Sequence record: DRR723986_7750
DNA length: 35,609 nt
Reading direction: 5' to 3' (one strand)
Every line of letters begins with the position of its first letter. Within the stretch, counting starts at the first letter, position 1. Both the position numbers and the translations under genes were made by a program. The notes under the pieces are model-generated. The model was not told where the DNA came from and searched no databases. It saw only the letters and a list, made by a program, of their open reading frames with translations. Shown in pieces: positions 147 to 33,461 of the stretch.

Positions 147-168
147 AGTGTATGCAATGTGTATGCAG
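147..168 (+). promoter_or_regulatory. Putative integrase arm-type binding sites (left)
   Basis: AGTGTATGCAATGTGTATGCAG contains tandem GTATGCA and matches 35531-35552 at 20 of 22 positions. Confidence 0.7.
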
Positions 169-213
169 TTTTATATATTCAAGCCTGACCACTTGAATAT
201 TGGAGTTCTATTC

Positions 214-2433: not shown

Positions 2434-2859
2434 ATGACTCAATCTCCTACACCAAAAACAGACCGTCGTGAGTATTACCGAGAGTACCGAAAGCGAAACA
2501 AGCATAAGTGGAAAAGAGTGACCGTTACACTCACCACTGACGAGTATCAGAGATTTAACAAACTGGCACTGAGGGAAAGTCGAACAGTACCGGAACAGAT
2601 CAAGCTGATGGCACTAACAGAATTCACGAACATCCGACCGGCACCTCGTGAATTGGTCGTAACGGTAAAAGACGCCATCCGTGAACTGAGGAGAATTGGC
2701 AACAATGTGAATCAGTTGACCAAACGAGTCCATTCAGAGCGAGGCGGTATATTTAGAAGACATCTTCGACAGGCACCGGAGCTTCTCCGAACGACTATAG
2801 CGGAGCTTAATCAGATTGAAAGTTCGATCCGTTCAACCATCAATTCCACGAACGAATGA
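2434..2859 (+). CDS. mobC: Relaxosome accessory protein MobC
   Basis: Ribbon-helix-helix-like 'VTVTLTTDEY' and MobC signature 'ELRRIGNNVNQL'; stop overlaps the relaxase start (ATGA). Confidence 0.88.
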   Translation: MTQSPTPKTDRREYYREYRKRNKHKWKRVTVTLTTDEYQRFNKLALRESRTVPEQIKLMALTEFTNIRPAPRELVVTVKDAIRELRRIGNNVNQLTKRVHSERGGIFRRHLRQAPELLRTTIAELNQIESSIRSTINSTNE

Positions 2860-3716
2860 TTATCAAATCACTCTCCCGGAAGGTTCCGTCATTCGGTCAA
2901 CTCTATGCCTATATCCAAGACGGAAGTCGAGGGGTGGAAGAAGATTTTTTCAGCCGAAATTTGAATGTTTCTGACCTCTCGGATACTGGACAAGTTGAGT
3001 TTCGATTCAATGAGAATTATGATGCCCTACGCAAAAAGCAGCAGGGAAATGCTCTTTATCACGAGGTCATTTCCCTTTCGCATCACCCAGACATAAATCA
3101 GGATAGACAGCGTGATCTCTTGCATGAAATTGGGGAATTCTATTTGCAGCAGCGTGGCGATGACTTATTGGCATTTGCCGGAGTCCATTTTGAGACTGAC
3201 CATGTACACTTGCATATCATGATATCGAGCAACAACGTTATGGAGACCAACCGCCATGTTTTGTCGAAAGCTCAGTTTCGCCAAGCCCAGATCAAGACCG
3301 AGCGAATGGTACAAGAGCGGTTTCCGGAGCTGAATGAGCCAACATTGTATCAGACCAAGGAGCGAGCGAAAACGAAACGAATGGGAGAAAAGGAGTACCA
3401 GTTGGTGAAGCGAACGAAGCAGTCTTCCAAGAAGCAGGAATTGACGAAGCATTTGGGAGTGATTTTTCGGGAGGCTCGTTCGATTGACGATATGATGGAA
3501 AGGCTCAAAAGCCAAGATATTGAACTGTACAAGCGTGGACAGTCCGTTTCTGTCAAAGTGAATGGCGTGCGGTATCGGTTGAAGAAACTAGGATTGGAAG
3601 CTGAGTTTACGAAAACCGTAACCGGATTGGAAAGAAGCGAGTTGCGGAGGCAAGAAATCGAGAAGACGGCTCTAAAGCGTAGCCAGCGGGACAGAAATGT
3701 CGAACGAAAGCGATAG
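2856..3716 (+). CDS. Relaxase/mobilization nuclease (MOBP/VirD2-like)
   Basis: N-terminal Tyr (LYAYI), 'YHEVISL' motif II and HUH motif 'HFETDHVHLHIMIS'. Confidence 0.9.
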   Translation: MIIKSLSRKVPSFGQLYAYIQDGSRGVEEDFFSRNLNVSDLSDTGQVEFRFNENYDALRKKQQGNALYHEVISLSHHPDINQDRQRDLLHEIGEFYLQQRGDDLLAFAGVHFETDHVHLHIMISSNNVMETNRHVLSKAQFRQAQIKTERMVQERFPELNEPTLYQTKERAKTKRMGEKEYQLVKRTKQSSKKQELTKHLGVIFREARSIDDMMERLKSQDIELYKRGQSVSVKVNGVRYRLKKLGLEAEFTKTVTGLERSELRRQEIEKTALKRSQRDRNVERKR

Positions 3717-5074: not shown

Positions 5075-5369
5075 GTCGTCACCCACGATATGTAGTTTAA
5101 CTACACGCCGGTTGTACCTAGAGTATACGCCAAGTGAATCGAGGCGTCAAGATCAGAGTTTGTGTTTTTCTGACCTTGCTGTTTGGCTTGGTTTAGTCTT
5201 TGTTGTAACCCTTCAATGTTTTTGCCACATCCCGATGGCTACGATTGTATCGCTCTTTGAATGTTCAACATGTCAATATGGGGGATGCGATGGATCGTAG
5301 TTGCACCTGTTGTTTCAAGAATATGATCTGCCTAATCAATTTACCGTCGAACCTTGTGAGGAGTTCTCT

Positions 5370-5849
5370 ATGAATTTCTTCAAAGACATTGCCACAGAGG
5401 ACGAAGCAAAACGACTGTATCGAGAGTTGTGTCTGAAACACCATCCTGATGTCGGTGGTGTAACCAAAACCATGCAGACGATCAATGCTCAGTACCGAGA
5501 GCTACTTGAAAAACTCAAACGCAGCTCAGGCATGGTGGATGAAGATGTTGTGGATGAAATGGAAATCGAACAAGAAATCATCGACCAAATCGGGAAGATC
5601 GTGTCCGTTACAGGAATTACAATTGAAATTGCTGGTCGATGGATATGGGTGACTGGAAATACATTTATACACAGAATTCAATTGAAAGAATCCGGCTACT
5701 TTTTCGCCCCGAAAAAGAAGTGCTGGTATTGGCGTTCGCAAAACGAAAAGTCGCACAATCGATCGCCAAAGCCACTGTCTTGGATTCGTGAGAAATATGG
5801 CTCGGTAGAGTATGGCAAAGAAGTAAACGAGAAGACACTGAAAAACTGA
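5370..5849 (+). CDS. J-domain (DnaJ-like) protein of the mobile-element type
   Basis: 'YRELCLKHHPDVGG...MQTINAQY' HPD motif, followed by 'GRWIWVTGNT...LKESGYFF..KKKCWYW'. ATG at 5370 follows GAGGAG. Confidence 0.85.
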   Translation: MNFFKDIATEDEAKRLYRELCLKHHPDVGGVTKTMQTINAQYRELLEKLKRSSGMVDEDVVDEMEIEQEIIDQIGKIVSVTGITIEIAGRWIWVTGNTFIHRIQLKESGYFFAPKKKCWYWRSQNEKSHNRSPKPLSWIREKYGSVEYGKEVNEKTLKN

Positions 5850-9820: not shown

Positions 9821-11254
9821 TTAGATTCGAGCATCAAAGCCTTCCGAAGTGATGTGTGCCCACATCGAGTACGCTTTGTTGACACGTCGAATCTTTTCTT
9901 CGCAGTCCGTACACTCCGGGTTGAAATCTGGATGATAGCGTTTTACCAGAATGTTTCTTTGTTTGTGAAGTAAAGGTTTCAGTTCTGCCAAAACCTCACT
10001 CGTCGCCGTCTCGAACGTGTAATCAGTGAGTTCCAGATCTGTCAGAATGGACCGAACGGTTTCATCCAGATCAAGTGTTTCCTCGGGATCATCGTCTTCA
10101 TAGGATTCGCCATCTTCGAATGCTTCCGAATCTGTTTCATGTGTGAAGTCCTCTTCGTCAAATGTTGATGCATCTTTCTCTCTGTGTGAAGATCTTGCAG
10201 TGGCGTCAATAGTTTTTAACGTTTCGAAATGAACGACCAATTCTTCTAAAATGTCAGATTCTTTGTCGTCGCATTTTCGCGTGGTCTCAAGGCACTGAAT
10301 GAGCTGATCGATTTTGAGGACGGTGGCGAGAAACATGTCACGATCTCTTGAAAGGAATCGAGATTCTGTTTCCATTTTATAGATTAGTGCTTTGATTTTG
10401 TCTTTGAGCCTCGTGTAGTACGCTCCGAATTCAACCCAGTCAGGGAGTTCTTCTTCCAGCTCATTCATGAGATCGAGTGACATCTCGTGCCAATTGTCAA
10501 ACGAGCGGTTTGTAAAATCATCTTTGAATCGTTGAAAGGGGAGAGAATGCTTCGCAATCTTGAGTTTAAGTTGTGCCACTTTGTGCATGAGTTCTGAAAT
10601 GATGTTGACATGACTCACATCGTGAGTCGCCATCGCCTCGTAGAGGGCCGCGTCTGACAGTTCAGATGAGTCTAAGAGATCGTAGTCGATTGACGCCAAT
10701 TTGCCGAAGAATTCATCAAGAAGGTCTCGCTTCTCTGTCTTTTTCCTGACCTCGTCAAACGTGAAATTGAGACGCTTGATATAGAGCCTGAGAGCTTGAA
10801 ATGCATCGTAATTTTGGGTGAGGGTCACAAGCGGAGAAGGCATCTTTGAGATTCCAATCGTTTGCAAGATTGATTGCAGGGCTTTGTGTTGCACTGGCAG
10901 TGTTCGCGATTGAGGGTCGGTAAAGACCGAAGGCAATTCATAAATTGCATCTGGCTTGTCTTTGGATGTGTACCGAAAGCCACCTGTTTTTTCGGCTGAC
11001 TCTGTTCGAGGGGGAGAGGTTCGTTTTCGGCGAGCATGTTCCTTTGGATCCGATTTGGGTTTCGCCCCTTTAGGACGGTCTTTCCTCGTTTTCGAGGTTG
11101 AATCTCGACGTTCGCCTTTTGGCGATGAATATTCAGCCTTTTCAAATTCCTCCGAGGCAGGCTTTGTGCGTCTTAATGGGTTCTTTTCGCGAATCCAGGA
11201 CGTTGCCATGTCCAACCGAGTCGCCTTTGAAAAGCGCTTCCAGAAGCTCCTCAC
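9821..11254 (-). CDS. Helical protein with a C-terminal J-domain
   Basis: C-terminal 'LVKRYHPDFN...EEKIRRVNKAY' (HPD), basic disordered N-terminus and an acidic linker. Confidence 0.8.
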   Translation of the reverse strand: MRSFWKRFSKATRLDMATSWIREKNPLRRTKPASEEFEKAEYSSPKGERRDSTSKTRKDRPKGAKPKSDPKEHARRKRTSPPRTESAEKTGGFRYTSKDKPDAIYELPSVFTDPQSRTLPVQHKALQSILQTIGISKMPSPLVTLTQNYDAFQALRLYIKRLNFTFDEVRKKTEKRDLLDEFFGKLASIDYDLLDSSELSDAALYEAMATHDVSHVNIISELMHKVAQLKLKIAKHSLPFQRFKDDFTNRSFDNWHEMSLDLMNELEEELPDWVEFGAYYTRLKDKIKALIYKMETESRFLSRDRDMFLATVLKIDQLIQCLETTRKCDDKESDILEELVVHFETLKTIDATARSSHREKDASTFDEEDFTHETDSEAFEDGESYEDDDPEETLDLDETVRSILTDLELTDYTFETATSEVLAELKPLLHKQRNILVKRYHPDFNPECTDCEEKIRRVNKAYSMWAHITSEGFDARI

Positions 11255-11334
11255 TCGTGGTCACCACATTGTGTATTAAACATTGTACGTGTTTATTGCC
11301 TGTATACTTAGAAAAGCGAGTATGCATCCTGCAT

Positions 11335-11625
11335 CTATCGGATGAGGACTTTTTGTGGCATATCCATCACTTCACTCTTTTTGAAATACACATTTCCCTC
11401 TAATCGGTAAAAGGGCAGAATGCCTTTTCGTTTCCATTTGTGAATCGTTGGTCGACTCCGTTTAAGTATTTTGCACACTTCGTCGATCGTAAGAAATTCA
11501 TCGAGTTCATCAGAACCTGTGTCAGGTTCTGAGCGATCGAGCGAATCAAATGCTTTTTGAACCGTTTCGGTCACCAGCATTCTGAATTCTTCCAAGGGAA
11601 TCGGTATGAGAACAATTTCATCCAT
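11335..11625 (-). CDS. Excisionase-family HTH_17 protein
   Basis: 'FLTIDEVCKILKRSRPTIHKW...G.LPFYRL...VYFKKSEV'. Confidence 0.9.
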   Translation of the reverse strand: MDEIVLIPIPLEEFRMLVTETVQKAFDSLDRSEPDTGSDELDEFLTIDEVCKILKRSRPTIHKWKRKGILPFYRLEGNVYFKKSEVMDMPQKVLIR

Positions 11626-11628
11626 AAA

Positions 11629-13224
11629 TCACCGATCCATCCGAGCGGTTTTCATTCGTTTGAGGAATGTTCTATTGTCATAGTAGCGAGTCGCTTTGAG
11701 TAAGAGTGGTTTGTGATTGCTATAGAGAAACAGCATTTGATCATCTGCCATTCGCCGGACTTCATCGGGTGTCATAAGCGGACGTTGTTTTTCCGTTTCT
11801 CTGGCTGTGTCGAGTTGAAAGCCTGTTTCCCGGTGGTTAAGTGTTCGGTTGCCGAGGGTCAATGAGATTTGTTGAGTCGTCTCGTAATTCTGAATGCCTG
11901 GCAAGTAGATTTTACTCGCACAGTTTTCGAGAATCGTTTCTGCATCAGCCGTGCCGTAGAGAGATGAAAGTTGTTTCAGTGACTGAATTCCCAGCGATAA
12001 ACTGACATCGTAGGAACGTGCAAAGGATATGATGTTCTGAAAGCCCGGGACTTTTGGAATGTTGGCAAATTCATCAAGCAAAAAGTAAATGGGTTTTTCG
12101 TCCGGACTGGGCGACTGGCTACAGCAATAGTCAAAGAGATATTTGTATAAAATCGTTAAAATGAATCCGTAATATTCAAGGCGATAAGTAGGTATAGTCA
12201 AAAAGAGTGCTACGGAATCAGTTCGCATGCTGTGAATGTTTAAGGAGTCTCGGCCAGAGGTGACTGCTAATAAATTTTCATCAAAAAAGGCGTCAAGTAC
12301 AATGCGTGCCGCACTTAACATGCCGTCACGACTTTTTTCGGGTTCACCCGTCCAAGATTTATAGATGCGAAAACTGTCGTCATCAAGATGCCGAAAGATA
12401 AGTTGTTCTACCGTTTCCTGTTCGTCCGTCCGGAGCATGGCTAAAAACTGTGCGACTGTTCCGAGGTGTTGTCGATTTGGTTCCAATTGTTTGGTGAGGT
12501 AGAGCAACACACCAATGAGTCGTTCCGCACCACTATTCCAATACACCTGATCGCCAGATGCTTTTGAATACTTTGCTTCAACCAATATATTCGCCAGTTG
12601 CCTCATTTCCGAATAGGTCGAAACGTAGTCCAGTGGGTTAAACACATGCGAATGCCGAGGATCGGCAAGGTTAAACCAACGGATTGTATAACCTTGCGAT
12701 AGAAGGTGCGGAATGACCAATTCGGCAATTTCACCTTTAGGATCGGTGCAGACACATGACTGACCAATCAAATTGCCAGCATTGACCATAAAGAAAGTGC
12801 TAGACTTACCTTTTCCGCTCGGACCAACAATCAGCAAGTGGTTGTAGCTGTTTTTCTCAGAAATTCTCTGAGTGCCATCGATATACAGTCCATCGTTCTG
12901 TTTGGACAAGAGCTTTTTCCGGTCTTTGCCTTCGAGCCACGCTGCCGATCCATAAATGGTACTCGACGTGCGTTTGAGAAGTCTGAAACACTTTTCAGCT
13001 AAGTATTTGAGAACCTTCCACGATGTACGAATAATCCAACCTACGCCGCGAAAAATGCCCCGAAAGATCGATTCAATATCGAGAGGAAATGTTGGTGCTT
13101 TGGAAAACAGAATCCACCTAACCACCGTGTACATGAGCCACAATGATATCCCTAAGCCTATCAGTTGCAGGAGAGCATCATAGACAGATGATCCAATGGA
13201 AGCAAAAGTAGCTGAATCTACCAT
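11629..13224 (-). CDS. Type IV coupling protein (VirD4/TraG family)
   Basis: N-terminal TM, 'YGSAAW', Walker A GPSGKGKS, 'DPKGE', Walker B 'FLLDEFANI', 'IQSLKQL..LYG' and 'RPLMTPDEVR'. Confidence 0.93.
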   Translation of the reverse strand: MVDSATFASIGSSVYDALLQLIGLGISLWLMYTVVRWILFSKAPTFPLDIESIFRGIFRGVGWIIRTSWKVLKYLAEKCFRLLKRTSSTIYGSAAWLEGKDRKKLLSKQNDGLYIDGTQRISEKNSYNHLLIVGPSGKGKSSTFFMVNAGNLIGQSCVCTDPKGEIAELVIPHLLSQGYTIRWFNLADPRHSHVFNPLDYVSTYSEMRQLANILVEAKYSKASGDQVYWNSGAERLIGVLLYLTKQLEPNRQHLGTVAQFLAMLRTDEQETVEQLIFRHLDDDSFRIYKSWTGEPEKSRDGMLSAARIVLDAFFDENLLAVTSGRDSLNIHSMRTDSVALFLTIPTYRLEYYGFILTILYKYLFDYCCSQSPSPDEKPIYFLLDEFANIPKVPGFQNIISFARSYDVSLSLGIQSLKQLSSLYGTADAETILENCASKIYLPGIQNYETTQQISLTLGNRTLNHRETGFQLDTARETEKQRPLMTPDEVRRMADDQMLFLYSNHKPLLLKATRYYDNRTFLKRMKTARMDR

Positions 13225-13421
13225 GTTAATTCGCGTGACTGTTCCCGATCGGGCTTAGCTCTGGATTGTTCCAACTGTTGCTTGCGGATTTCACGCTCTC
13301 CGATCTCGATCAAATAGCCCATCGCTACCGCAAAACCGCGATACGATTCTTGCTGTTTCTTTAGAATGCCGACGGCATCTTGAAGCGTTTTGAGGTCAAC
13401 GTCTTGATTGGATTCATTCAT
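13218..13421 (-). CDS. Small hypothetical protein coupled to the T4CP gene
   Basis: 67-aa helical ORF whose end overlaps the T4CP start. Confidence 0.6.
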   Translation of the reverse strand: MNESNQDVDLKTLQDAVGILKKQQESYRGFAVAMGYLIEIGEREIRKQQLEQSRAKPDREQSRELTW

Positions 13422-13475
13422 AGTGCAAAGTCTTGTGAGTATAAATTGAGGCAATTGAGTGCAAAAACAATTGAA

Positions 13476-13685
13476 TCATTTTCCAGCTGTGGCTTTTCCG
13501 TCCGGATGTTCCTGTCTCGCCTTGAATCCACATTGAGTACACAAAAGAACCGGATATTTGAATCCAGCAAGAACGGTATACTTTACGAAGTGCATGTAAC
13601 CAACAATTCCCGATTTCGGTGTCTTTTTAACACAATACGGACACTTACCACCTTCGCGTAATTGGGCTTGTCTCAAGACTTGCAT
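13476..13685 (-). CDS. Small zinc-ribbon-like protein
   Basis: CPYC...CTQC pairs; GGAG upstream of the ATG at 13685. Confidence 0.55.
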   Translation of the reverse strand: MQVLRQAQLREGGKCPYCVKKTPKSGIVGYMHFVKYTVLAGFKYPVLLCTQCGFKARQEHPDGKATAGK

Positions 13686-13876
13686 ATTCGGCTCCAAATA
13701 ATTGTTAAGAAAGACTGTGTTCAATTGACAAAAAGAAGACAAACTCGTTGGACTCGGCTACTTGTTCGGAGTCTTCAAAAAGAGACCGTCAAAGCAGCCG
13801 GAGTGCCAACGATCCATTACCAAACAGTGAAAAAGCACCACGTACACGGCTCTTCACGTTTAGAATGGGGGGATTC

Positions 13877-14071
13877 TTAGCGTTCTATTTCCGCTTCCGG
13901 TTCGGAAATGGACTTCGTTTGCTCCAAGCCTTGTTCGCGTTCCATTTTTTTGATGATGGCATATGCTTTCTTGAGGCTTTGATAGCCATTGCCAACGGCG
14001 TATCTGAGCTGTGTTAAGTCATCCACTTCCTTTTCAGGAGGGGAAGGGGTTTCATTCGTCGGTTTGTCCAT
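13877..14071 (-). CDS. Small hypothetical protein
   Basis: GGAGG RBS and a 64-aa helical ORF in the co-directional run. Confidence 0.65.
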   Translation of the reverse strand: MDKPTNETPSPPEKEVDDLTQLRYAVGNGYQSLKKAYAIIKKMEREQGLEQTKSISEPEAEIER

Positions 14072-14113
14072 GAGTTATACCTCCAAGGAAAAAGAGTATC
14101 AATTTCAATTGTT

Positions 14114-14716
14114 TTACTGGCTCTCGGTCGAAGCAATAGGCTCTTCTGGCCGAGACATGCGATTTTCATGATTGATGCTAAGGAGTTGCGAAAGTGTATT
14201 GCGTGAGCGAGAAACAACTCGTTTTTGTACCACCGTTAAAGAAAAAAACAGCGAATAGAACAACAGTAAGAAGACAAGATTGACATAACTGTCAATGGGC
14301 GGTGAAAATCCACCTGAATTGAATAAGTGATGTGCACGGAGTGGGATAACCAAAAATGAAAAGGACAAAACCATATAGCAATAACGTAATGGAGTTAACA
14401 ACGCACGCTTCATCGAGAAATTTAGAAGTTCTATTGATATGATTTGAAAAAATGCGAGTAACAGAGCAAGTACGATACTCGAATAGACCGATCCGATCCC
14501 CAAGCTTATACCAAGTAGGGAATAGAAGAGACTTGCAATTATCGTGGCTCTCAAGGCCAGGTAAATCGTGCCTAATTTTGAAAATTCATTGTCCCCGCTC
14601 ACGGTCTTTTTGACCGTGTCAACGCTCACCAATCGAATGTTCTTGCCATGTTCAAGAAAGGGAGGAAGAACGAACACGAGCACCATTATCAGAAAGACAA
14701 GAATCAACCAGAACAT
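14114..14716 (-). CDS. Multi-pass membrane protein
   Basis: About five hydrophobic segments; starts 10 nt after the JAB-E1 stop. Confidence 0.75.
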   Translation of the reverse strand: MFWLILVFLIMVLVFVLPPFLEHGKNIRLVSVDTVKKTVSGDNEFSKLGTIYLALRATIIASLFYSLLGISLGIGSVYSSIVLALLLAFFQIISIELLNFSMKRALLTPLRYCYMVLSFSFLVIPLRAHHLFNSGGFSPPIDSYVNLVFLLLFYSLFFSLTVVQKRVVSRSRNTLSQLLSINHENRMSRPEEPIASTESQ

Positions 14717-14726
14717 TCTGTTGTCC

Positions 14727-16304
14727 TCAGTTTGTGACGAGTGTTAATGTTTTTGCGTCAGCTGCACTGTTTTTGACCCGAGCTTCATTGACCGTTGGCA
14801 ATTGTATGTGCCGATTGCGGTTCGTAAACCAATCAAGGTTTTCACTATCTCCCGAGCCAATGTAAATCTGACAGTTGAGGCAGGTGTTGGATTTGGTTTC
14901 TGGATCTTCAGAAGTCAAAACTCGCCTCAGTTTATTTGCTTCTCCATCTGGATCGTCATTCAATCGCATGAGATCAACAAATACGTTCCAGCTTAACGGC
15001 TTGTATCCAGTTAAAAGATTCAATGTTTCAAGGAGTACAAAGCTGGCAACATTCATATTTAACGGATACACCGAGGGAGCTGGATCATCAGCCGAATCAT
15101 CTCCTTTGATATACCCATGTGCCTTGAAATTGTGCCGAGTGTCAGGGTCAAGAAACGCATGTTGAATCTGTTGTCGATCATAGTAGTCTATGTGGCTACA
15201 ATCCATACATCGCGTAACGCCTGGCATAACGGTTGCCATTCGAATATTGAGAGTGTTAATCTTACCGTTCGTTCCATCGATCAAAGTCCCGGCATCAATG
15301 TAGGGGATGAGATATTGTAGCGACAGGCGATTGAGAAAATACCGGCTTTCATGTGTATCAGTACCGCCAATAATGACGTCACATTGTTTCAGGGCTGACA
15401 CAGCTTCTTCCGAGAAAAGCGTTGTTTGCAAGGCTTCGATTTTGAGCATGGGAAGCATTTGATTGAGCCGTTGCTTGCATACTTCAACCTTTGGCTTGTT
15501 AATATCTCGTTTGCGTCCACCTTGCCAGCGATTGAGATTGTGTGTCTCTACTTTATCGGGATCAATCAGGGTGAGAGTGCGGACACCAAGTCGCACCAAG
15601 CCCTCAGCCACGATGGAACCAACTCCACCGATTCCCACCAGACCTATGTGTGTCGTTGACAATGCCTTTTGTCCCGGTTCGCCAAAGGCCAAAACATGCC
15701 GAGAAAAGAGACCATCCTCCTCGCCAACTCTATTCTCAGACTTTAACGCTCGATTCGTAGGAAAGATATGCCGGATAGGTTCTCCTATGACAGATATCCG
15801 CTCTACGGCAAGAAACGATTTGGATTTGCTATCATAACGATGAGCGGCGATTGTCTCTTGTCCGAATACCATTGATGTCGCTATAACCGTTGCATCCTGA
15901 TTCTTTGAAGCTCGTTCCTTTGGAATCTCCGTTTGCAGGTAGGTGTGTTCGTGTTTGTCATCATTCAAATCCACCGAAGAAAACCACACGTCTCCCTGCT
16001 CGAAAGGATGACTATGACATTTAATGATGGAAGTGTAATCACTGTCAATAAATCGTTTGTGAACTTGTTGAACCAATTCTTTGGCAAGGTGAACATGCCC
16101 TTGACTGCGTTCAAGTTTGCCTTTTTGGTCTTGGATGGACAAGGCTTTATGTGGAAGCAAGATACAAGTGTTCTTGTACCGCACCGTATGTCCAAACAGG
16201 TAACATATTTGCTCTGTTTGATCTTTGAGCAAATGTTCTCGAATGGAATGGTAAAGTTCAGCGGTGAGTTTAATATTCAGATGTTTTATCGAGGGTTCAT
16301 TCAT
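14727..16304 (-). CDS. JAB/MPN metallopeptidase fused to a ThiF/E1-like adenylyltransferase
   Basis: JAB: 'EQICYL' and 'HSHPF...FSSVD'. E1: 'GIGGVGS', 'LIDPDKVETHNLNR', 'GTD..ESR', 'PYIDAG' and Zn pairs CMDC/CLNC. Confidence 0.92.
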   Translation of the reverse strand: MNEPSIKHLNIKLTAELYHSIREHLLKDQTEQICYLFGHTVRYKNTCILLPHKALSIQDQKGKLERSQGHVHLAKELVQQVHKRFIDSDYTSIIKCHSHPFEQGDVWFSSVDLNDDKHEHTYLQTEIPKERASKNQDATVIATSMVFGQETIAAHRYDSKSKSFLAVERISVIGEPIRHIFPTNRALKSENRVGEEDGLFSRHVLAFGEPGQKALSTTHIGLVGIGGVGSIVAEGLVRLGVRTLTLIDPDKVETHNLNRWQGGRKRDINKPKVEVCKQRLNQMLPMLKIEALQTTLFSEEAVSALKQCDVIIGGTDTHESRYFLNRLSLQYLIPYIDAGTLIDGTNGKINTLNIRMATVMPGVTRCMDCSHIDYYDRQQIQHAFLDPDTRHNFKAHGYIKGDDSADDPAPSVYPLNMNVASFVLLETLNLLTGYKPLSWNVFVDLMRLNDDPDGEANKLRRVLTSEDPETKSNTCLNCQIYIGSGDSENLDWFTNRNRHIQLPTVNEARVKNSAADAKTLTLVTN

Positions 16305-16341
16305 ACGAACGTCCTAGCGAATATCCGGTTATGAAAGAAGA

Positions 16342-17070
16342 TTAATGTTGATAGAGGGCTGGTTGCGATAGGGCACGGTAGAGATGTTCAATGTATCCAG
16401 CGAGGCAATCACCTTGAGTGATGTTGTGCGGCACAAAATTCCACTTTCTATTTACATGTTCATCATATCGAAAACACAGCCATTTCCAACCGTTGTTTGT
16501 GAGGTGCTCGGTGCTAAATTCTCGGTTATACATAGCTTGATCAAAAACATGCCCGAGTGCGTATTGAATTCTTGGGAAGTTGGGTGACCCCTGCTTAACA
16601 TGTATACCATTAGGACCAAATTCCGGATAATCGGCGATGACAATGGTGATGTTTTCGTAATCAGGGTCGAAAGAAACTTTCTCACCTGAAGGAAGGGTGC
16701 AATGGTCTGGCAAAGGGAAATTCAAGAGTTGAATCCATTCCAGATAGTCTTTTCCACCTAGAATATATTCTCGAGTGGCATTGTCTGGTTCAAACGTGTT
16801 ATAAAAGCCATGGATTAAACTAAGCTCCTGTTTAATCAGCCTTGTCTTGTAACCCGCCAGTGATACAGGGCGTTGATAGGTTTGAATTTGGTCATATTTT
16901 ATTGCGTCTTCAGACCTAACTTGCTCTGCCGAGAGAATCGTCCAGACTCCATCTGATTCTCTTTGAGCCTGAGCAGGGTTGCCACCTGTTAAAGTTGAAA
17001 TCTTAGTCGAAGAGTCTACTCGCTGGGGTAACATGTTTACCCGTAAGTTCTTGAATGATTGACGAGCCAT
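16342..17070 (-). CDS. Prokaryotic E2-like (UBC fold) protein with a putative N-terminal ubiquitin-like domain
   Basis: 'RLIKQEL', 'WIQLLNFPLP', 'ITIVIADYP..GP', 'GWKWLCF', 'W.F' and 'GDCLAGYI' resemble prokaryotic E2 family E. The first ~73 aa end in 'SLAG'. Adjacent to JAB-E1. Confidence 0.65.
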   Translation of the reverse strand: MARQSFKNLRVNMLPQRVDSSTKISTLTGGNPAQAQRESDGVWTILSAEQVRSEDAIKYDQIQTYQRPVSLAGYKTRLIKQELSLIHGFYNTFEPDNATREYILGGKDYLEWIQLLNFPLPDHCTLPSGEKVSFDPDYENITIVIADYPEFGPNGIHVKQGSPNFPRIQYALGHVFDQAMYNREFSTEHLTNNGWKWLCFRYDEHVNRKWNFVPHNITQGDCLAGYIEHLYRALSQPALYQH

Positions 17071-17123
17071 CACACACTCCTGTAAACATAGTTTAAGTTA
17101 GTACAATTGTTGTATTGCAATTT

Positions 17124-17363
17124 TTAACTGTCAATTTTCGGTCGAGGCTTTGCTGGTTCATTAACAAGACCAGTCCAATCAATTAATCGTTTGCCCTCAC
17201 TATCAAATTCAATTACATTTTGAACTCGTTCTGATGTATTGGGCAATTGTTCATCGGGAATTTCTGAACTGGATATCTGAGAGATTTCCCGTTTAATAAG
17301 GTTGTTCAAGCCAACAGTACTATCTACTTCTTGACTTTCTTGCCGGATTCTTTGACGTGCCAT
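17124..17363 (-). CDS. Small protein with a C-terminal DWTGLxNEP motif
   Basis: Motif shared with 17455-17883 supports coding status. Confidence 0.7.
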   Translation of the reverse strand: MARQRIRQESQEVDSTVGLNNLIKREISQISSSEIPDEQLPNTSERVQNVIEFDSEGKRLIDWTGLVNEPAKPRPKIDS

Positions 17364-17454
17364 GTGATGTGTTGTAAATACAAACACATTTTAGCACGCC
17401 TCGAATACTGTGTCAATAGCTTAGAGCAATATTAATTCCTCCTTGAAATGAGCT

Positions 17455-17883
17455 TTAATTGTTTTTCCTTGTCGGTTCATTGTGTAAACCAGTCCAGTCC
17501 ATTATGATCTTGCCGTCTTTGTCTTTCGGTCTTTGTTCCGAAGCTGGGAAAATGATTCTTCTTGGAGTTCCTCCTGGATTGAGAGGGTCGGGAGCTTGAC
17601 GTTGCTCTGCATTAACGGGTAGAGCACGATTATGATGAGCTTCAACTGGACGATCTGCAACGTGATAATCCGCCCGCGGATTTCTTTGGTGCACTCGACG
17701 CCTTGAAGCAACTGCATCTGATCCAATGTCGAAAAGCCACACTATTGCCTTCCACAGTCCAATAGCTGTATACTTCACCACAAGAAAAGCTCCAATTGCA
17801 GCGTATTTAACGCCAAACCATATCGCAACTAATACAAGCAGGATGAATAGAATTAAAGCCGAGATCAAAATGAAATCAACCAT
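17455..17883 (-). CDS. Membrane-anchored protein with a C-terminal DWTGLxNEP motif
   Basis: Hydrophobic N-terminus, low-complexity linker, and the motif shared with 17124-17363. Confidence 0.7.
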   Translation of the reverse strand: MVDFILISALILFILLVLVAIWFGVKYAAIGAFLVVKYTAIGLWKAIVWLFDIGSDAVASRRRVHQRNPRADYHVADRPVEAHHNRALPVNAEQRQAPDPLNPGGTPRRIIFPASEQRPKDKDGKIIMDWTGLHNEPTRKNN

Positions 17884-18390
17884 AGTAAGCACTTCTAGGA
17901 TTAGATAGTGAAAACACAGCTCGTCCGCACAACCCATTTTGAAGATTGGTCGTGAAAGGATCAGAAAGTAGTTGCCCAGTTAGGCGTTTAAGCTTCACGG
18001 CGACAGGTGGTAATTATTCCGGTAGAAGCACAGAGGTTCTAGACGTAGGTGATGCGTTGCAAATCAAACTGGTACGCGTTTGGCAATGACAGGAGCAAGA
18101 CTAATCTTGACTCTTGGTGAAAGCTCAATAATGTGTATCCAGCAGTTTCGGAAGCTCGGAGGAGTAGTTGGTTCAAGAACTATCTCATCCACCTACGTTT
18201 GGGAAGGTTTAGTTCCCACCGTTGGCCGAGATTGCGTAGCCCGGTACGATTATTCGTCCGGGCTGTTTATGGTATTGATTCTACTGGGGAAAGGATTAAA
18301 TAGTCCGTGCAGAGAATCTTGCACAAGAAAACACTATCTCAAAAGTTTGACAAGTTGCGGAGGTCACTTTATGGGGTAAGTCGGTAGCAT

Positions 18391-19788
18391 TTAAGTCTCT
18401 GGCTGACTTGATGACAGCTTCAGTAATTCTAGGTTCAAATTCATTTTTGTGTGGATGCCTAACTTTTTCCGAATGCTCGATCGGTAGTTTTTCAGCGATT
18501 TTTCACTGACATTCAGCATTTGAGCGTGTTGCTTGACTCTTATATTGGGATCCAGCCAAATTTGGCAGATGACAATGATCTCAAGTTGTTTGAAGGGCAT
18601 TGGATTGTTTAATATCCTATCGATCAGTGTTTTATCGACACGGTTCATTATGGACAATTGATCGGATGGGAAATCAAGAAAATGATCGGATATTTGATGA
18701 CTGAGCTTCTCATGTTCGTCTTTTTGAGTTGAGGGGAGAGCTGACTTTTTCTGAGAAAGTACGTTCAATTGCGACTGAATGTTCGCTAGTAATTGATTTT
18801 TGCTTTCTCTGTCATTAAGCAACTTGTCTATTTCTTTGTGCAAATAGCTATATACCGCTTCCGCGTGCCTCGGAGTTTTATGATAGTTAAACTTTAAGCC
18901 CAAAGTTGTGCCTTTTTGCATTAGGGCGAGGCCCTCTGGGAATCGATTTTGCTTCATTCGAACAGCCGAAAGATTCAAATATGTAATTACCAAGTCTTCA
19001 TGATCATCTAGTGTTTCGAACTGTTTGGTACTAGTCTGAAAGTAATTTGAAGCTTGTTCTAGTTGATCCATCTTTTCATAAACTATTCCCAAATTACACG
19101 TGTTGTGTGCGATACCGCGATCGTTGCCCAATTTTGTAAATAGATCTAGTCCTAGTTCTGAGTAATGCTTTGCTTTCTCCAGGTAGCCATGATCTTGGAA
19201 TTCTCGGCCAAGTGCTGTGTATGTCAACGCTTTTGCATTGTTATTGTTTGTTTGTTCGGCTATGTCGAGAGCTTTCATAAAATATTCTACTGCATCTTTC
19301 GCTCTCCCCAACATAGAAAGTGCATTTCCGATATTCAAATGGCTTGTTGCAAGTATGGATCGATAATCAGGATATTTTTCTCGATGAGTAAACTGTATAC
19401 AACGTTTTTCTATGCGGATTTGAGTTTCAAGTAAATTCATTTTGCCATAGCACATTGCCAATTGACTTTGGATGATCGTCATCATGCGACTGTCTCCAAG
19501 CCTCGAGCAATGGATGGTTGCTTGCACATTCTCTTCTACAGCTGATTCAAAATCGTAAACGTAATAGAAATACAGTCCTTTGATCTTGTGGACGTGTGCC
19601 AAATCAAAATTGCTGTGATTTTTGTGTGCAAGCGTAAACGCCTTTTCGATTGCTTTCAAAGCCACTGCTGTGTCTACGGACAAAGCATGATACGCCGCCT
19701 TGCACAGCTCAAGTACCAAGTTTGCGTCATCCTGTTCCTTTTCAAGTAATACAGTGATTCGGCTAAGCACAGTTCTAAATTCAGACAT
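18391..19788 (-). CDS. TPR-repeat protein with a C-terminal LuxR-like HTH (transcriptional regulator)
   Basis: Repeats such as 'ATSHLNIGNAL...AVEYFMKAL' and 'IAHNTCNLGIVY'; C-terminal 'AQMLNVSEKSLKNYRSSIRKKLGI'. Start uncertain (ORF is open to 19971). Confidence 0.85.
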   Translation of the reverse strand: MSEFRTVLSRITVLLEKEQDDANLVLELCKAAYHALSVDTAVALKAIEKAFTLAHKNHSNFDLAHVHKIKGLYFYYVYDFESAVEENVQATIHCSRLGDSRMMTIIQSQLAMCYGKMNLLETQIRIEKRCIQFTHREKYPDYRSILATSHLNIGNALSMLGRAKDAVEYFMKALDIAEQTNNNNAKALTYTALGREFQDHGYLEKAKHYSELGLDLFTKLGNDRGIAHNTCNLGIVYEKMDQLEQASNYFQTSTKQFETLDDHEDLVITYLNLSAVRMKQNRFPEGLALMQKGTTLGLKFNYHKTPRHAEAVYSYLHKEIDKLLNDRESKNQLLANIQSQLNVLSQKKSALPSTQKDEHEKLSHQISDHFLDFPSDQLSIMNRVDKTLIDRILNNPMPFKQLEIIVICQIWLDPNIRVKQHAQMLNVSEKSLKNYRSSIRKKLGIHTKMNLNLELLKLSSSQPET

Positions 19789-20717
19789 TTGTAGCGACCC
19801 TAACTTTGAGGTTTCTGGTTGACATACATATTTTGAAGTTGAGCATATTTGACCGAAGTGAAATGCTAATGAATAGGATGTTTCGAGTTTGGCACTCAAC
19901 GGCGAAACAACCAGATCAGTTCTAGGTTTGCAACGAGACTGCTTTACTAAAGACGCGGTAGAATAATTCACTTTGGTGCATTCTCAACTCGCTTAACCAA
20001 ATATACTATTGAGATTGAAGTATTGAAACTTACAGGATGTGGCTACCCACCCAAAGTTCCTTCCCATACTCGATTGAAACCACTCTGACACGTCATCCTT
20101 CTTCTCTTAGGAATCTGTGAAATTCTGTTTAATCCGATGGTAATTCTGTGACCCGGTATTTTCTAAATCTCCCGCTCTAGAGTCCTGCATTCAGCGGTGG
20201 TGAGCACACTGAATTGACGCTAAACAGGGCAAGAGAAGGAAATAAATTGTCCCATCTAGATGTATGTGATACGCCAATCGTGACCCGAAAGAGAACCCAT
20301 ATACGAAAATAGAGTTGTCTAAAAGTTTCCTTCCTATTAGCTTTTGCCACTGAACCAACGGTCAAACTGTGGACATAACCACAATTTTAGCCCAAATCAA
20401 TCACATTGAGTCCCGAGAGTGGAAGAAAGGACGGTGACAAATCTTTTGTATGGAAATGGCATGTCAGGGCTGGTTGAATTTCTCGCCGCATGATGCATTC
20501 AGTATGCGTCTTGGAAGCCGCGAGATGTGCGAGGTCTGCCGAGCACAGTGAATTCTCTTGCGTTCCGACTCGACCGAATCGAATAGAGAGTGAGTCTTGT
20601 GAATAGGTCTCACCATCACTGCTGTGCCACCCAGAATGTCCGAAACAGTTCAACTTTGAGTCACTGCCTGATTTTGAACTGTGTGTGGCTACAGAGCCTT
20701 TTACGGTGCTTTATCCA

Positions 20718-21102: not shown

Positions 21103-22704
21103 ATGCGTGCTATTCGTGAAATGTATGACTTGGTAAAACGCCTCACCAGCCGAGGGCATGTGGCGGTAGACTACTTTCTTGATCCCGAATATGCGAGCAC
21201 CAAGTTGCTCCGGGGAATAGAAGAAGGACGATATCAGGATGATGAATCTGCTATGGCAGATATGTTTGAGCAGGCTGGCGATAACAAAAAACGTTCGCAG
21301 TCCTATCGAAAGACTAAGTATGATCTCATCCGCCGTCTCATCAATCTGCACTACTTTATAGTGATCCGGTCAGGTACACACGCAGAGTTCAAAGTGAACG
21401 CCTACGCCGCCAAGAAAGAACTGCTCGTTGCAGAAGTGTGTCAATGGTTTCAGTGCCATGAGGCTATGAAGCTCATTGCCCGAAGGGTCTTAATAAAAGC
21501 CAGACACTATCACTTGACCTATGAGCATGTCCGGAGTGCGGAACTTCTGAGGAATTATTACACGTTACGAGGGCCTTCAAAAGACTGCTTGATGCATGCA
21601 GACGAAGCGACATCCGCTGGGAAAGTGTTTCAAGCAGAATTAGCGGCCTCAAATATTCATGCAGCCATCAAATCGGAATTGACTTCCAGACTGGCACTCG
21701 ATCCCGATAAACACAGCTACTACGAAGTTCAGTGTAAGCAGTTAAAAAACTTGGTAGATACACATCAAACTCGTCAGCTCTGGCAAGTGTACAGTGATAC
21801 GGCTGGTCTCGTGTTTCGGCAAATGGGGCATACGGAAAAAGCACTTGAAGTGTATGAAGCGTTTTCTCACTTTCTCAGTGTCAACAAACATTTGAGTTCT
21901 GCCAAAAGGCAAGCTCAAGTATGTTTTTATCTCTTGCGTTGCCACTTGACATCGCGAAACTATGCCGAAGCTCGCCAAGTCATTCAACGCTCAGATCAAT
22001 TCTTGGAATTTGGCACGTTTAACTGGTATCGGCACAAGTTAATTCACTGCATCATCTATATGCACGGCAAGTCTTGGGACAAAGCCATAGAGACTTTTCT
22101 CTGGGTCATTCAGCAGCCGAATTTTACAAAAGAAAGCATTCGGGTTGAACTATGGAGTGTGGTGGAAGGTTATTTGCGATTCTTTTGCGACCAGCATGAA
22201 CTATTGCCAGAAGACAAAACTATTCACGGCCAGGTCTTTCAACTACATCACCTGATGCAAGAAATCGAATTCAGCCGATGGGATAAAGCCGGTATGAATG
22301 TAGCCATCATGATTTTTCAGGGACTGAACTATCTCCAAAAGCACCAATTTGATTTATTAGACGGTCGAATTGATGCCATGCGGAATTACGCATCAAAATT
22401 CCTCAAAAAGGACAAGAGCGGACGCTTTGAGCGAACTCGTACTTTGTTTCGCATGTTTTCCGTGATGAAAACGTGTCATTATGATGCAGTCAAAACGTGT
22501 AAACAAACACAAGACAAGTGGGAAAAGTTAAAAGAGCACAGCTCACCGGGTATGGCCCGAGGCATCCAAATCGAAGAGTTTGTGCCTTACGAAACCGTCT
22601 GGGAAAAAGTTTTGTACGAACTCGAAGCCATTCACGCACAAGGCGTGCTTGTCAATGAGTTTCGCGGAACCGATAAAGAGAATGCCGAAACAGTCCGTGC
22701 TTGA
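21103..22704 (+). CDS. Large all-helical (TPR-like) hypothetical protein, possibly a regulator
   Basis: 533-aa ORF with TPR-like helices and a basic N-terminal 'SYRKTKYDL..RL' segment. Confidence 0.75.
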   Translation: MRAIREMYDLVKRLTSRGHVAVDYFLDPEYASTKLLRGIEEGRYQDDESAMADMFEQAGDNKKRSQSYRKTKYDLIRRLINLHYFIVIRSGTHAEFKVNAYAAKKELLVAEVCQWFQCHEAMKLIARRVLIKARHYHLTYEHVRSAELLRNYYTLRGPSKDCLMHADEATSAGKVFQAELAASNIHAAIKSELTSRLALDPDKHSYYEVQCKQLKNLVDTHQTRQLWQVYSDTAGLVFRQMGHTEKALEVYEAFSHFLSVNKHLSSAKRQAQVCFYLLRCHLTSRNYAEARQVIQRSDQFLEFGTFNWYRHKLIHCIIYMHGKSWDKAIETFLWVIQQPNFTKESIRVELWSVVEGYLRFFCDQHELLPEDKTIHGQVFQLHHLMQEIEFSRWDKAGMNVAIMIFQGLNYLQKHQFDLLDGRIDAMRNYASKFLKKDKSGRFERTRTLFRMFSVMKTCHYDAVKTCKQTQDKWEKLKEHSSPGMARGIQIEEFVPYETVWEKVLYELEAIHAQGVLVNEFRGTDKENAETVRA

Positions 22705-23830: not shown

Positions 23831-24523
23831 ATGTCTCAATTACCGTTCAAAACAGAAACGGCACAACAACTTCATGCCGTATTTCAACAATTTGTGTCAG
23901 AAGGACATTCACTCAAAAAGGTGTTTGAGGACTTTGTCCAACTCACCGTATATGGCTTTTCTCCTTTTGTAAACGTCCCGGTTATAAACCAAGTGATAAG
24001 CCAATGGCCATTGCGATCTGGAGAATCTTTTGTTGAATCGTTGCAAGCACAATTCCTGAAAGCTATTGCCATACTTGACCGAGGTATGGATCGGGAACAG
24101 TGCGACATATTGGGAGACTATTTCGAGACCGTTTTTTTTGGTGAAAAGTCAAAAGGACAAATATTAACCGGCGATCGATTGGTTGACCTAGTGAATGGTT
24201 TGACCTTCTTGTCCAAAAGCCAGTCAGAAGGAACCATCCTCGATCCCTGTTGTGGGTCTGGAAGATTTCTCTTATCCGCTGGAAACTTGAATCCAAAAAA
24301 CTTTCTCATCGGTGTTGACATTGACCTGCTCATGGCAAATATGTGTGCCGTTAATCTCGCCATGCACGGACTCCGAGGTGTCGTGATCTGGGCTGACATC
24401 TTTGATATTGATTTCGAACACCCGGAATGCACTACTTACAATCGAGTCTACGAAATTGGCATCGTCGCACCACGTGTCATTCGAGTTACGAATACGTTCA
24501 ACTTTCGATTTTGTGAAGAATGA
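23831..24523 (+). CDS. N6 DNA-methylase-like SAM-binding protein (short, no NPP[YF])
   Basis: 'DILGDYF', 'GQILT', 'ILDPCCGSGRFLL', 'GVDID' and 'MCAVNL'. Confidence 0.85.
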   Translation: MSQLPFKTETAQQLHAVFQQFVSEGHSLKKVFEDFVQLTVYGFSPFVNVPVINQVISQWPLRSGESFVESLQAQFLKAIAILDRGMDREQCDILGDYFETVFFGEKSKGQILTGDRLVDLVNGLTFLSKSQSEGTILDPCCGSGRFLLSAGNLNPKNFLIGVDIDLLMANMCAVNLAMHGLRGVVIWADIFDIDFEHPECTTYNRVYEIGIVAPRVIRVTNTFNFRFCEE

Positions 24524-24693: not shown

Positions 24694-25440
24694 ATGCCAA
24701 AAATTCGCTTTACTACTCAGTCTGCTAAAAAGCTTCACGATATCTTTAGTCTCTTCGAACGCGACGGTCACGATCTCAGAAACGTATTCGACGATTTTCT
24801 TATCATGTCGATCTGTGCGTTGTCTGGCGGTGCGATGGAGGACCAATATCTTGAAATCGCCCGAAAATGGCCTCGTCGAGACGGAGAAGGCATTGGCGAA
24901 GGACTCATTGACGAATTTCCGAAAGCCTTTGCAACACTCGTCGAAGGGATGGAAACCGAAAAATGCGACGTTCTCGGTGACTACTTCATGGGAGCGATCA
25001 GTCACGGACACAATGGACAGTATTTCACACCCGACAATATCTGCAATTTGATGGCACAAATGATAGAGCCAAAGTCAGGAGAATCAGTTGCAGACTTTTG
25101 TTGCGGGAGTGGTCGCACCTTACTCGCAGGGGCAAAAACGAATCCAAACGGTCTGTTTGTCGGGAAAGACATCGATCTGCGATGCGTTCAAATGTGTACG
25201 ATCAATCTCGCACTAAACGGACTTCGAGGTTTTGTCATCTGGGGGAATGGACTAACTGATGAACAGAATCGAGTCTATCAAACAGGGTTTAATGGTCGAG
25301 GGTTTGTGAAAGAGATTGATCCGGAGCTTCACAGTTTTAGTCCCACTTCAGCGGCCAGCGATGCCCCAGTTTCGGAAATGGAAAAACGTAGTAATGGATC
25401 AGACCAGCTGTCTTTGTTTATTGATTTACAGAATGACTGA
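24694..25440 (+). CDS. N6 DNA-methylase-like SAM-binding protein (short, no NPP[YF])
   Basis: 'DVLGDYFM', 'GQYFTP', 'DFCCGSGRTLL', 'GKDID' and 'WGNGL'. Confidence 0.88.
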   Translation: MPKIRFTTQSAKKLHDIFSLFERDGHDLRNVFDDFLIMSICALSGGAMEDQYLEIARKWPRRDGEGIGEGLIDEFPKAFATLVEGMETEKCDVLGDYFMGAISHGHNGQYFTPDNICNLMAQMIEPKSGESVADFCCGSGRTLLAGAKTNPNGLFVGKDIDLRCVQMCTINLALNGLRGFVIWGNGLTDEQNRVYQTGFNGRGFVKEIDPELHSFSPTSAASDAPVSEMEKRSNGSDQLSLFIDLQND

Positions 25441-31009: not shown

Positions 31010-31026
31010 TAGCTGCGACCTATTAA

Positions 31027-33321: not shown

Positions 33322-33461
33322 TTACATTGCTCTTAGTCAATTGCACTGAGTCCTGTAGCGACGGGACTATGGCTAGACCTGTAGAAAAGCCGAGTGCAGA
33401 GTTAATATTTGAAGAGTAGTTAAATGGTTTTTCAACATGGAGTAATAAGGCAAATAGATTC

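Follow-up and report, generated by a model that had tools for sequence, protein, structure and literature searches.

A JAB-E1 and Ubl-E2 cassette on a mobile element, related to Type I Bub and carrying cysteine at the E2 serine position

In 2024 the Bub systems were described as unique among ubiquitin-type cascades in working without any catalytic cysteine (Ye, Gong, Chambers and Corbett, bioRxiv 10.1101/2024.11.21.623953; hereafter Ye et al. 2024). Type I Bub (formerly 6E.1) of Citrobacter sp. RHBSTW-00271 (PDB 9ea4, 9eae, 9eav) comprises BubAB, a fusion of ubiquitin-like (Ubl) protein and E2; BubCD, a JAB-E1 fusion whose crossover loop lacks Cys and carries an invariant Tyr370; and BubE, a Ser-His protease of the DUF6527 family that is present in every Bub operon (Ye et al. 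2024). The JAB of BubCD was shown experimentally to cut BubAB after the conserved Gly229, and Y370F (BubCD) and S333A/H335A (BubB) each abolish conjugation; the E2 Ser was reported invariant in 107 BubAB and 400 BubBD proteins (Ye et al. 2024). The Bub type also corresponds to row 6e of Iyer et al. 2006, which lists a JAB-E1 together with poly-Ubl, RWD-like E2s that lack cysteine and a zinc-finger protein. Here we describe a cassette of two genes, encoding a Ubl-E2 precursor and a JAB-E1 fusion, in a 35,609-nucleotide stretch of sequence record DRR723986_7750, the whole of which we call the window. The cassette is a real, intact system, a cousin of Bub with a Cys E2 and with no BubE among the open reading frames (ORFs) scanned. 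The Ubl-E2 fusion, the JAB processing and an E1 without cysteine have all been described before, in Type I Bub (Ye et al. 2024), so that the architecture, which the original prediction from this DNA had taken as novel, is not new.

Fold, conservation and active-site residues of the cassette proteins

Three co-directional ORFs of 243, 525 and 200 amino acids (aa) lie on the minus strand; that of JAB-E1 begins 37 nt past the Ubl-E2 stop, and a membrane-protein ORF begins 10 nt past the JAB-E1 stop. Residues of the Ubl-E2 protein are numbered on the 243-aa ORF from GTG 17073. The true start is probably ATG 17070 (MARQ..., 242 aa), because a GGAG Shine-Dalgarno sequence lies 6 nt upstream of it, and all residue numbers would then be one lower.

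The Ubl-E2 protein has no match in Pfam, NCBIfam or PADLOC. A phmmer search of PDB sequences returned nothing relevant, and the family profile reached BubB only marginally (E 0.048) in the same collection. An exhaustive HMMER search among 1.84 billion representatives found 58 proteins at E<=0.001 and 34 at E<=1e-10, with a sole close homologue, P0001, at 73% identity. Some of these relatives have ~230-245 aa, and others have ~150-170 aa and start at query residue ~76. The AlphaFold2 model, built on a 51-sequence alignment, has a mean predicted local distance difference test (pLDDT) score of 90.1; residues 8-65 run b-b-a-b-b-a-b and are followed by a linker, and residues 73-241 form a helix, a beta-meander and a final helix. 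Against 48,161 chains, VIA-align put Citrobacter BubB first, over residues 77-240 (9eav_D; Z 8.8, root-mean-square deviation (rmsd) 3.2, 118 residues aligned); the top 50 rows (Z 5.3-8.8, or 5.3-7.6 after BubB), spanning residues ~70-243, are mostly E2/UEV-type chains. The Ubl part, modelled alone (pLDDT 86.4), matched best over residues 7-73 to domain 3 (155-229) of Citrobacter BubA (9eav_C; Z 5.4, rmsd 2.5, 63 aligned); its top 50 rows are mostly beta-grasp proteins, comprising ThiS, MoaD, TGS, Ubl/UBX, 2Fe-2S ferredoxin-type and bacterial multi-ubiquitin chains. As absolute figures the Z values are modest, and their weight lies in the consistency of the match lists. Foldseek against the PDB gave weak rows only (E >= 0.1): with the whole model these were for the most part E2/UEV and Ubl-bearing chains, with the Ubl model for the most part beta-grasp proteins. 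VIA-align was relied on instead. The model confidently supports a small beta-grasp domain followed by a UBC/E2 fold, as had been foreseen for the N-terminal ~73 residues and the remainder. Within the E2 part, residues 162-164 (SPN) may, by analogy, be an HPN-like S-x-N.

Related loci were fetched with an E1 alignment, 13 from species genomes and 80 from metagenomes (93 in total), and two hidden Markov models (HMMs), one for each half of the Ubl-E2 protein, were run against their ORFs. An E2 homologue adjoins the E1 in 12 of the 13 genome loci, the exception (L005) being cut by a contig end. The existence of 57 relatives of the E2 part (E<=0.001) and the recurrence of the cassette in genome and metagenome loci argue that its features are not due to chance. 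The same ~65-aa Ubl domain occurs on the E2 or on other proteins, and also as a free form, upstream in some cases and downstream of JAB-E1 in others. Its HMM matches the window protein at E 1.2e-15 and gives 46 matches in total. Eleven are fused to the E2 (window, L001, L004, L015-L017, L021, L026, L027, L058, L066). A further 26 are free ORFs ending 0-6 residues past the terminal column: seven end exactly at this column, a conserved Gly, seven end one residue later (G, C or A) and 12 end 2-6 residues past it. The remaining nine have a longer tail or another domain, among them an L009 protein with a NucA/NucB DNase domain and the JAB-E1 of L055. The terminal column is Gly in 43/46 and Ala in 3/46 (window, L001, L026). 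Gene orders are permuted (Ubl-E2-E1, E2-E1-Ubl and Ubl-E1-E2, the free Ubl of L018 lying 5' of an E1-E2 pair); free Ubls lie 5' of the E2, for example in L002/L003 (end ...IIKG-stop), or 3' of the E1, for example in L006/L008 (end ...NKGG-stop). This comparison turns a Ubl call that was weak at the outset into a strong prediction. It also makes it very likely, judged from sequence, that the SLAG junction is where a tag with a small last residue is released; the tag would end LA or LAG in the window, against KG or KGG in the free family members.

Two other placements of the Ubl module were seen. In L009 (4413-5240), of a proteobacterial branch, it is fused to a NucA/NucB DNase domain (PF14040, E 6.7e-9), and NucA/NucB-type proteins occur near the cassette in L040 (2011-2616), while BLAST clustering assigns homologues to L033, L053 and L055; this suggests nuclease effectors released by JAB. 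In L055 (4511-6256) the module (residues 17-81, ...INKG/AAAA...) sits on the N-terminus of JAB-E1 itself, and the locus holds two more Ubl matches, one a free 65-aa ORF and the other with a 36-residue tail.

The E1 half of the JAB-E1 protein matches Pfam ThiF (PF00899) over residues 200-437 (E 4.2e-47). In a family alignment of 43 full-length relatives (30-76% identity), the JAMM residues E31, H97, H99, S109 and D112, Arg202, the GxGxxG glycines, D316 and both CxxC pairs (C366/C369, C475/C478) are invariant, and the codons of all these key residues were verified in the window; the intact JAB ligands, ATP motifs and two CxxC pairs had been read correctly in the original prediction. Across loci, E31 is kept in 80/80 and H97/H99/S109/D112 in 82/82 non-gap sequences, and no E1 lacks a fused, intact JAB peptidase. 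The crossover loop was said to lack Cys between CMDC and PSVYPLN, and the count there is indeed 0; the loop is Cys-free in 93/94 E1 sequences. A residue missed at that stage is Y398 of the loop, which is invariant in the 43-sequence alignment and Tyr in 84/85 non-gap sequences across loci. By sequence, Citrobacter BubCD (9ea4, E 7.7e-20) is the best match of known structure; the window HGYIKG aligns with BubCD RGYITG, which puts Y398 on the tyrosine of GYI. That tyrosine has chain index 372 of 458 and is taken as Y370 on the assumption, made from the lengths alone (458 vs 456), of a 2-residue tag.

Pfam Prok-JAB gave no match on the window protein and is precomputed for some distant relatives. 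NCBIfam ThiF/MoeB-type scores are far under the equivalog cut-offs (for example 106.7 vs 275 bits). PADLOC returned only CBASS Cap2-type E1-E2 models on the ThiF core (best E 3.6e-21), with best-stretch spans between residues 208 and 371 and thus covering the adenylation core only. A scan of viral contigs with the E1 alignment found no relative. A complex prediction of E1 185-525 with Ubl 1-74, run without alignments and with an uncertain partner fold, scored 0.00 and counts neither way for binding.

The E2 is one of three points at which the cassette departs from Bub, the others being BubE and the E1 branch. The original prediction had pointed to a Cys in WKWLCF and to a Gly codon at 16852-16854 in SLAG, and both are present. 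Among E2 matches at E<=1e-25, the WKWLCF column is Cys in 57/58; the lone non-Cys is Asp, in the second E2 paralogue of L060. Eight Prok-E2_E-like E2s of more distant loci read F-S-(W/F/V)-H, with one variant F-C-W-Q, and five of them reached the Pfam cut-off when scanned. Alignment of the window E2 family with Prok-E2_E-type E2s by hhalign (probability 97.5%, E 8.3e-12, 119 columns) puts Cys200 on the Bub-type Ser of the F-S-W-H motif and the +2 His of the family on their His, which agrees with the earlier remark that family-E E2s have Ser at the equivalent position. The Pfam model Prok-E2_E itself (PF14462, cut-off 25 bits) has no match on the window protein at E<=0.1 and matches 3/51 family members weakly (best E 7.4e-4); the profile-profile kinship is clear.

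Several side observations concern the E2. The two L060 paralogues are in tandem (1792-2292 and 2336-2848), and the second, with Asp for the conserved Cys, may be an inactive UEV-like partner. In L089 (266-652) an E2 that is Prok-E2_E-like by BLAST clustering with Pfam-confirmed members has Cys (F-C-W-Q) where Bub E2s have Ser, and the E2 of L085 (615-1457), placed in the same way, has a related Cys-bearing stretch; there may have been more than one switch between Ser and Cys. Family member P0124 (319 aa) carries a DnaJ domain N-terminal to its Ubl-E2 (E 3.8e-20), and two window ORFs have sub-threshold J-domain matches of 21.8 and 24.5 bits (cut-off 27.8; Table 1); this may be coincidence.

Neither the 42 window ORFs of at least 60 aa nor 82 neighbour ORFs of Cys-type loci matched DUF6527/BubE (PF20137), and the same model gave 80.8 bits as a positive control in the Bub-type locus L086. 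In a quick, unrooted IQ-TREE phylogeny of 64 E1 sequences, a split with 100% SH-aLRT support separates 47 that have core Cys-type E2 partners from 16 sequences, namely the Ser-type ones and two distant Cys-bearing groups. This points to an E1 branch separate from that of Bub.

Proposed mechanism and competing explanations

We propose, and consider it probable, that the cassette is a three-module Ubl-conjugation system, sister to Type I Bub and part of the cargo of a mobilisable or conjugative element of the integrative kind, in which an ester on Tyr398 gives way to a thioester on Cys200. The first gene would be made as a Ubl-E2 precursor, which JAB would cut at ...SLA/G/Y into a separate E2 and a beta-grasp tag of ~73 aa whose last residue is small. 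With its intact ATP, Mg and Arg-finger residues, the E1 is expected to adenylate the tag C-terminus. Because the E1 loop lacks a Cys, the tag would be taken up by Tyr398 as an oxyester, by homology with BubCD. It would move on to Cys200 of the E2 as a thioester, a step unlike that of Bub, where the E2 uses Ser, and would finally be transferred to target lysines. With BubE absent, and with JAB retained even beside a tag gene whose product already ends at Gly, the JAB domain probably takes tags off as well. The role of the system is probably in conflict or defence, or in element maintenance, on behalf of the mobile element.

Several observations weigh against this proposal. In the window register, Ala73 falls on the family Gly column and Gly74 on a frequent second Gly, and the closest homologue, P0001, has Ala-Ala at the junction; this leaves uncertain both where the cut falls and what the activated C-terminus is, and cleavage may follow either A73 or G74. 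Thus the expected cleavage after Gly stands as to the SLAG boundary, where the free homologues end, and not as to the exact residue; similarly, conservation of the Gly holds for the family column and fails for the window and P0001. At the E2 site, the residue +2 from the Cys is His in 37/58 relatives and Arg202 in the window, and the Bub Asp column is Asn155, so that the active-site environment is not that of Bub and Cys200 could be non-catalytic. No target, E3 or dedicated deconjugase is identifiable for the cassette. The counts across loci come from a sample taken with two peptide patterns, not de-duplicated and including several near-identical pairs, and the association with mobile elements reflects gene company in individual loci. 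Beyond fold and motifs, the scheme is inferred throughout.

A different route would have the E1 adenylate only, with the E2 Cys attacking the Ubl-adenylate directly and no covalent E1 intermediate, which is in essence what the original prediction had envisaged. The Cys-free crossover loop is compatible with it, the acceptor in the window family is a Cys, and a thiol surpasses a tyrosine hydroxyl as a nucleophile. As first written, however, that reading overlooked Tyr398, which is invariant in both the Cys-type and the Ser-type branches and aligns with BubCD Y370, where Y370F abolished product with the adenylation residues intact (Ye et al. 2024). Were this tyrosine without function, it would not have remained unchanged among proteins of 30-45% overall identity. 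The direct route is still live; the invariant Tyr makes it the less likely one, and we regard it as unlikely.

The cassette might instead be an ordinary Type I Bub member, wholly oxyester-based, in which the Cys is incidental. It has the same two-gene architecture and the conserved Tyr, the best structural matches for both domains of gene 1 are in the Citrobacter Bub complex, the best sequence match of gene 2 is BubCD, and the profile-profile homology of the E2s is strong. Yet the near-uniform E2 Cys faces a Ser that is invariant in Bub (Ye et al. 2024), and DUF6527 is missing from the window and the Cys-type ORFs scanned though all Bub operons have bubE (Ye et al. 2024). The window E2 also has no Pfam Prok-E2_E match, the Cys-type E1s split from the Ser-type with full support in the quick tree, and the window family keeps its CxxC zinc pairs where Citrobacter BubCD is non-Cys at the first pair. 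Together these make ordinary membership decidedly improbable. More doubtful again, and in our view very improbable, is the idea that the N-terminal domain is not released and serves in cis as an E1-docking or regulatory beta-grasp, with the E1 acting on another substrate or in sulfur transfer or peptide modification of the ThiS/MoaD/MccB type. Such a role would fit a window junction without the family Gly at the conserved column, an E1 closest to ThiF/MoeB in Pfam and NCBIfam, and zinc CxxC pairs kept as in MoeB/ThiF. It sits badly with homologous domains that are free ORFs ending G or GG in permuted gene orders, with the JAB peptidase on every E1, with a neighbouring UBC-fold protein that has the conserved Cys in all genome loci except the one at a contig end, and with a window that holds no rhodanese, sulfurtransferase or biosynthetic genes.

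If the proposed ester-to-thioester relay operates, its wider meaning can be put forward tentatively, with rather less than even confidence: the cassette would be a mechanistic hybrid that runs from an E1 Tyr ester to a classical E2 Cys thioester, has one JAB as maturase and eraser, rides conjugative or mobilisable elements and may tag proteins of the transfer machinery or of invaders. As an evolutionary intermediate, a true hybrid would reveal in what order cysteines were lost or gained by E1 and E2. The family joins a Bub-type tyrosine E1 to a cysteine E2, and this Tyr/Cys chemistry is the part worth testing. The fused, split and permuted Ubl genes form a natural series for pinpointing the processing site, and the lack of BubE makes the family suited to asking whether JAB alone matures and removes the tag. 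That the cassette is found repeatedly next to coupling proteins and relaxases suggests a mobile-element role that Bub studies have left undefined.

Mobile-element setting and neighbouring genes

The window is a mobile element, with genes for integration, mobilisation and coupling (Table 1). Its two N6-methylase fragments may be one disrupted gene. The run of nuclease, helicase and TGT/DUF6884 genes at the far end resembles DNA-modification or defence cargo; the TGT and DUF6884 matches are weak and below cut-off (TGT 25.5 bits vs 26.3). Consensus scans for promoters and terminators gave no excess over shuffled expectation, and megablast of window positions 11000-18000 against plasmids gave no match.

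Table 1. Positions of the cassette features and of other genes in the window
Feature	Position	Strand	Remarks
Ubl-E2 precursor gene	16342..17073	-	243 aa, or probably 242 aa (see text)
Ubl (beta-grasp) domain	16852..17073	-	residues 1-74, end ...PVSLAG
Predicted JAB processing site	16852..16857	-	codons Ala73-Gly74; cut expected after A73 or G74
E2 (UBC-fold) domain	16345..16851	-	residues 75-243
Cys200 codon, predicted catalytic Cys of E2	16474..16476	-	W-K-W-L-C-F-R-Y; codon verified
JAB-E1 fusion gene	14727..16304	-	525 aa
JAB/JAMM peptidase domain	15780..16304	-	~residues 1-175; E31, H97, H99, S109, D112
E1 adenylation domain	14730..15722	-	residues ~195-525; CxxC pairs C366/C369, C475/C478
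Tyr398 codon, predicted ester-forming residue	15111..15113	-	crossover loop HGYIKG; by alignment to BubCD
Multi-pass membrane protein gene	14114..14716	-	200 aa; 3' of JAB-E1
Tyrosine integrase	148-1431		
MobC/NikA-like protein	2434-2859		
Relaxase	2856-3716		
ORF with sub-threshold J-domain match	5301-5849	+	21.8 bits
ORF with sub-threshold J-domain match	9821-11254	-	24.5 bits
Excisionase-type helix-turn-helix protein	11335-11625		
T4 coupling protein	11629-13224		E 1.4e-63
Small ORF just 5' of cassette	17124-17387	-	87 aa
Small ORF just 5' of cassette	17455-17937	-	160 aa; hydrophobic N-terminus
TPR_12 protein, 5' of cassette	18391-19971	-	E 3.6e-17
Protein with weak RPN7-like repeat match	21103-22704	+	
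Two adjacent N6-methylase fragments	23831-24523, 24694-25440		
Serine recombinase	28019-29785		
PD-(D/E)XK nuclease, UvrD-type helicase, TGT/DUF6884 protein	30062-35171	-	

Comparable company is found in related loci. A T4 coupling protein lies 3' of the cassette in L027 and is 21% identical to that of the window; TraG-like ATPases occur in L039 and L040, with a homologue by BLAST clustering in L065; L021 and L036 have Replic_Relax proteins, to which BLAST clustering adds homologues in L005 and L043; and other related loci have Cas2 or methylase genes. Such neighbours point to a role in conflict or in element maintenance. Genes for nSTAND1 NTPases were also seen within a few kb of the cassette in L004 (3675-7259) and L012 (12041-15217), one with WD40 repeats, and homologues were assigned by BLAST clustering in L032, L037 and L038. 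A proteobacterial sub-branch shows a conserved five-gene layout, consisting of an uncharacterised ~290-aa protein, a DUF4407 membrane/coiled-coil protein, the E2, JAB-E1 and the Ubl, in L006-L011, L029-L031, L040, L041, L053, L059 and others.

The membrane protein downstream of JAB-E1, which had been put forward as a possible target or effector, has four to five hydrophobic segments. It has no match in Pfam, NCBIfam or PADLOC, no homologue at E<=0.001 (atlas scores are below 0.9) and no counterpart in the 93 related loci, and on these grounds we do not count it in the system; the suggested role gains nothing from these searches.

Upstream, the 87-aa and 160-aa ORFs share a 19-residue C-terminal motif, (D)xxGKxxxDWTGLxNEP (11/19 identical, pairwise E 1e-6), and have no family match and no exact match in the protein collection. 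The TPR_12 protein has in addition a sub-threshold C-terminal LuxR/GerE-type GerE helix-turn-helix match (E 1e-3; 19.1 bits vs a cut-off of 23.5). It and the RPN7-like protein are possible regulators.

Comparison with known systems

In the published literature covered, which does not extend to the paper from which the Prok-E2 families come (Burroughs et al. 2011, Mol Biosyst), no description of a JAB-E1 (Tyr) with a Cys-type E2 was found. The text of Table S1 of Ye et al. 2024, possibly incomplete, contains no Propionivibrio, Sulfurovum, Nitratiruptor, Thiodictyon or Saprospiraceae, and 'Methylobacter' matched Methylobacterium only; this is a weak sign that the Bub counts did not take in named members of the present family.

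The ThiF/ThiS and MoeB/MoaD pairs share with the cassette a single-domain E1 of the homodimer type, a CxxC...CxxC zinc site and a small beta-grasp partner ending in Gly, whereas they have no E2 and no JAB fusion and stand in a context of cofactor biosynthesis. Type II CBASS with Cap2/Cap3 uses E1, E2 and JAB chemistry as well. An assignment to CBASS from the Cap2-type PADLOC matches was rejected, as the window has no cyclase (CD-NTase) and no E2-E1 fusion; moreover, the CBASS substrate is the cyclase C-terminus and not a Ubl. The anti-phage Bil system (BilABCD) resembles the cassette in having a Ubl, a Cys E2, a JAB and an E1 and in conjugating the Ubl to targets, but the window E1, set against Bil as defined by Ye et al. 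2024, is a single ThiF-type domain without a Cys domain and is fused to JAB.

Type II Bub (6E.2; BubA, BubBD, BubE) likewise has an invariant Tyr in an E1 loop free of Cys, and its E2 belongs to the same superfamily; it differs in that the E2 is fused to the E1, JAB is lacking, the E2 site is Ser/Lys/His and BubE is present.

Type I Bub is the nearest of the described systems in architecture. Both consist of a Ubl-E2 precursor and a JAB-E1 fusion, the E1 being in each case a single adenylation domain that carries a JAB/JAMM at its N-terminus and has a Cys-free crossover loop with an invariant Tyr. In both, the Ubl sits on the E2 N-terminus, the E2 is without a C-terminal helix pair, and the genes are carried on mobile elements. 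Fusion of the Ubl to the E2 is optional in the window family, where, unlike in Bub, the position of the Ubl gene varies. The tag is one small beta-grasp domain here and up to three in Bub, and the E1 family keeps two CxxC pairs while Citrobacter BubCD aligns non-Cys residues at the first. At the E2 active site, the window protein has Arg for the Bub His and Asn for the Bub Asp, and the nucleophile column, Ser in Bub, is Cys in the window family.

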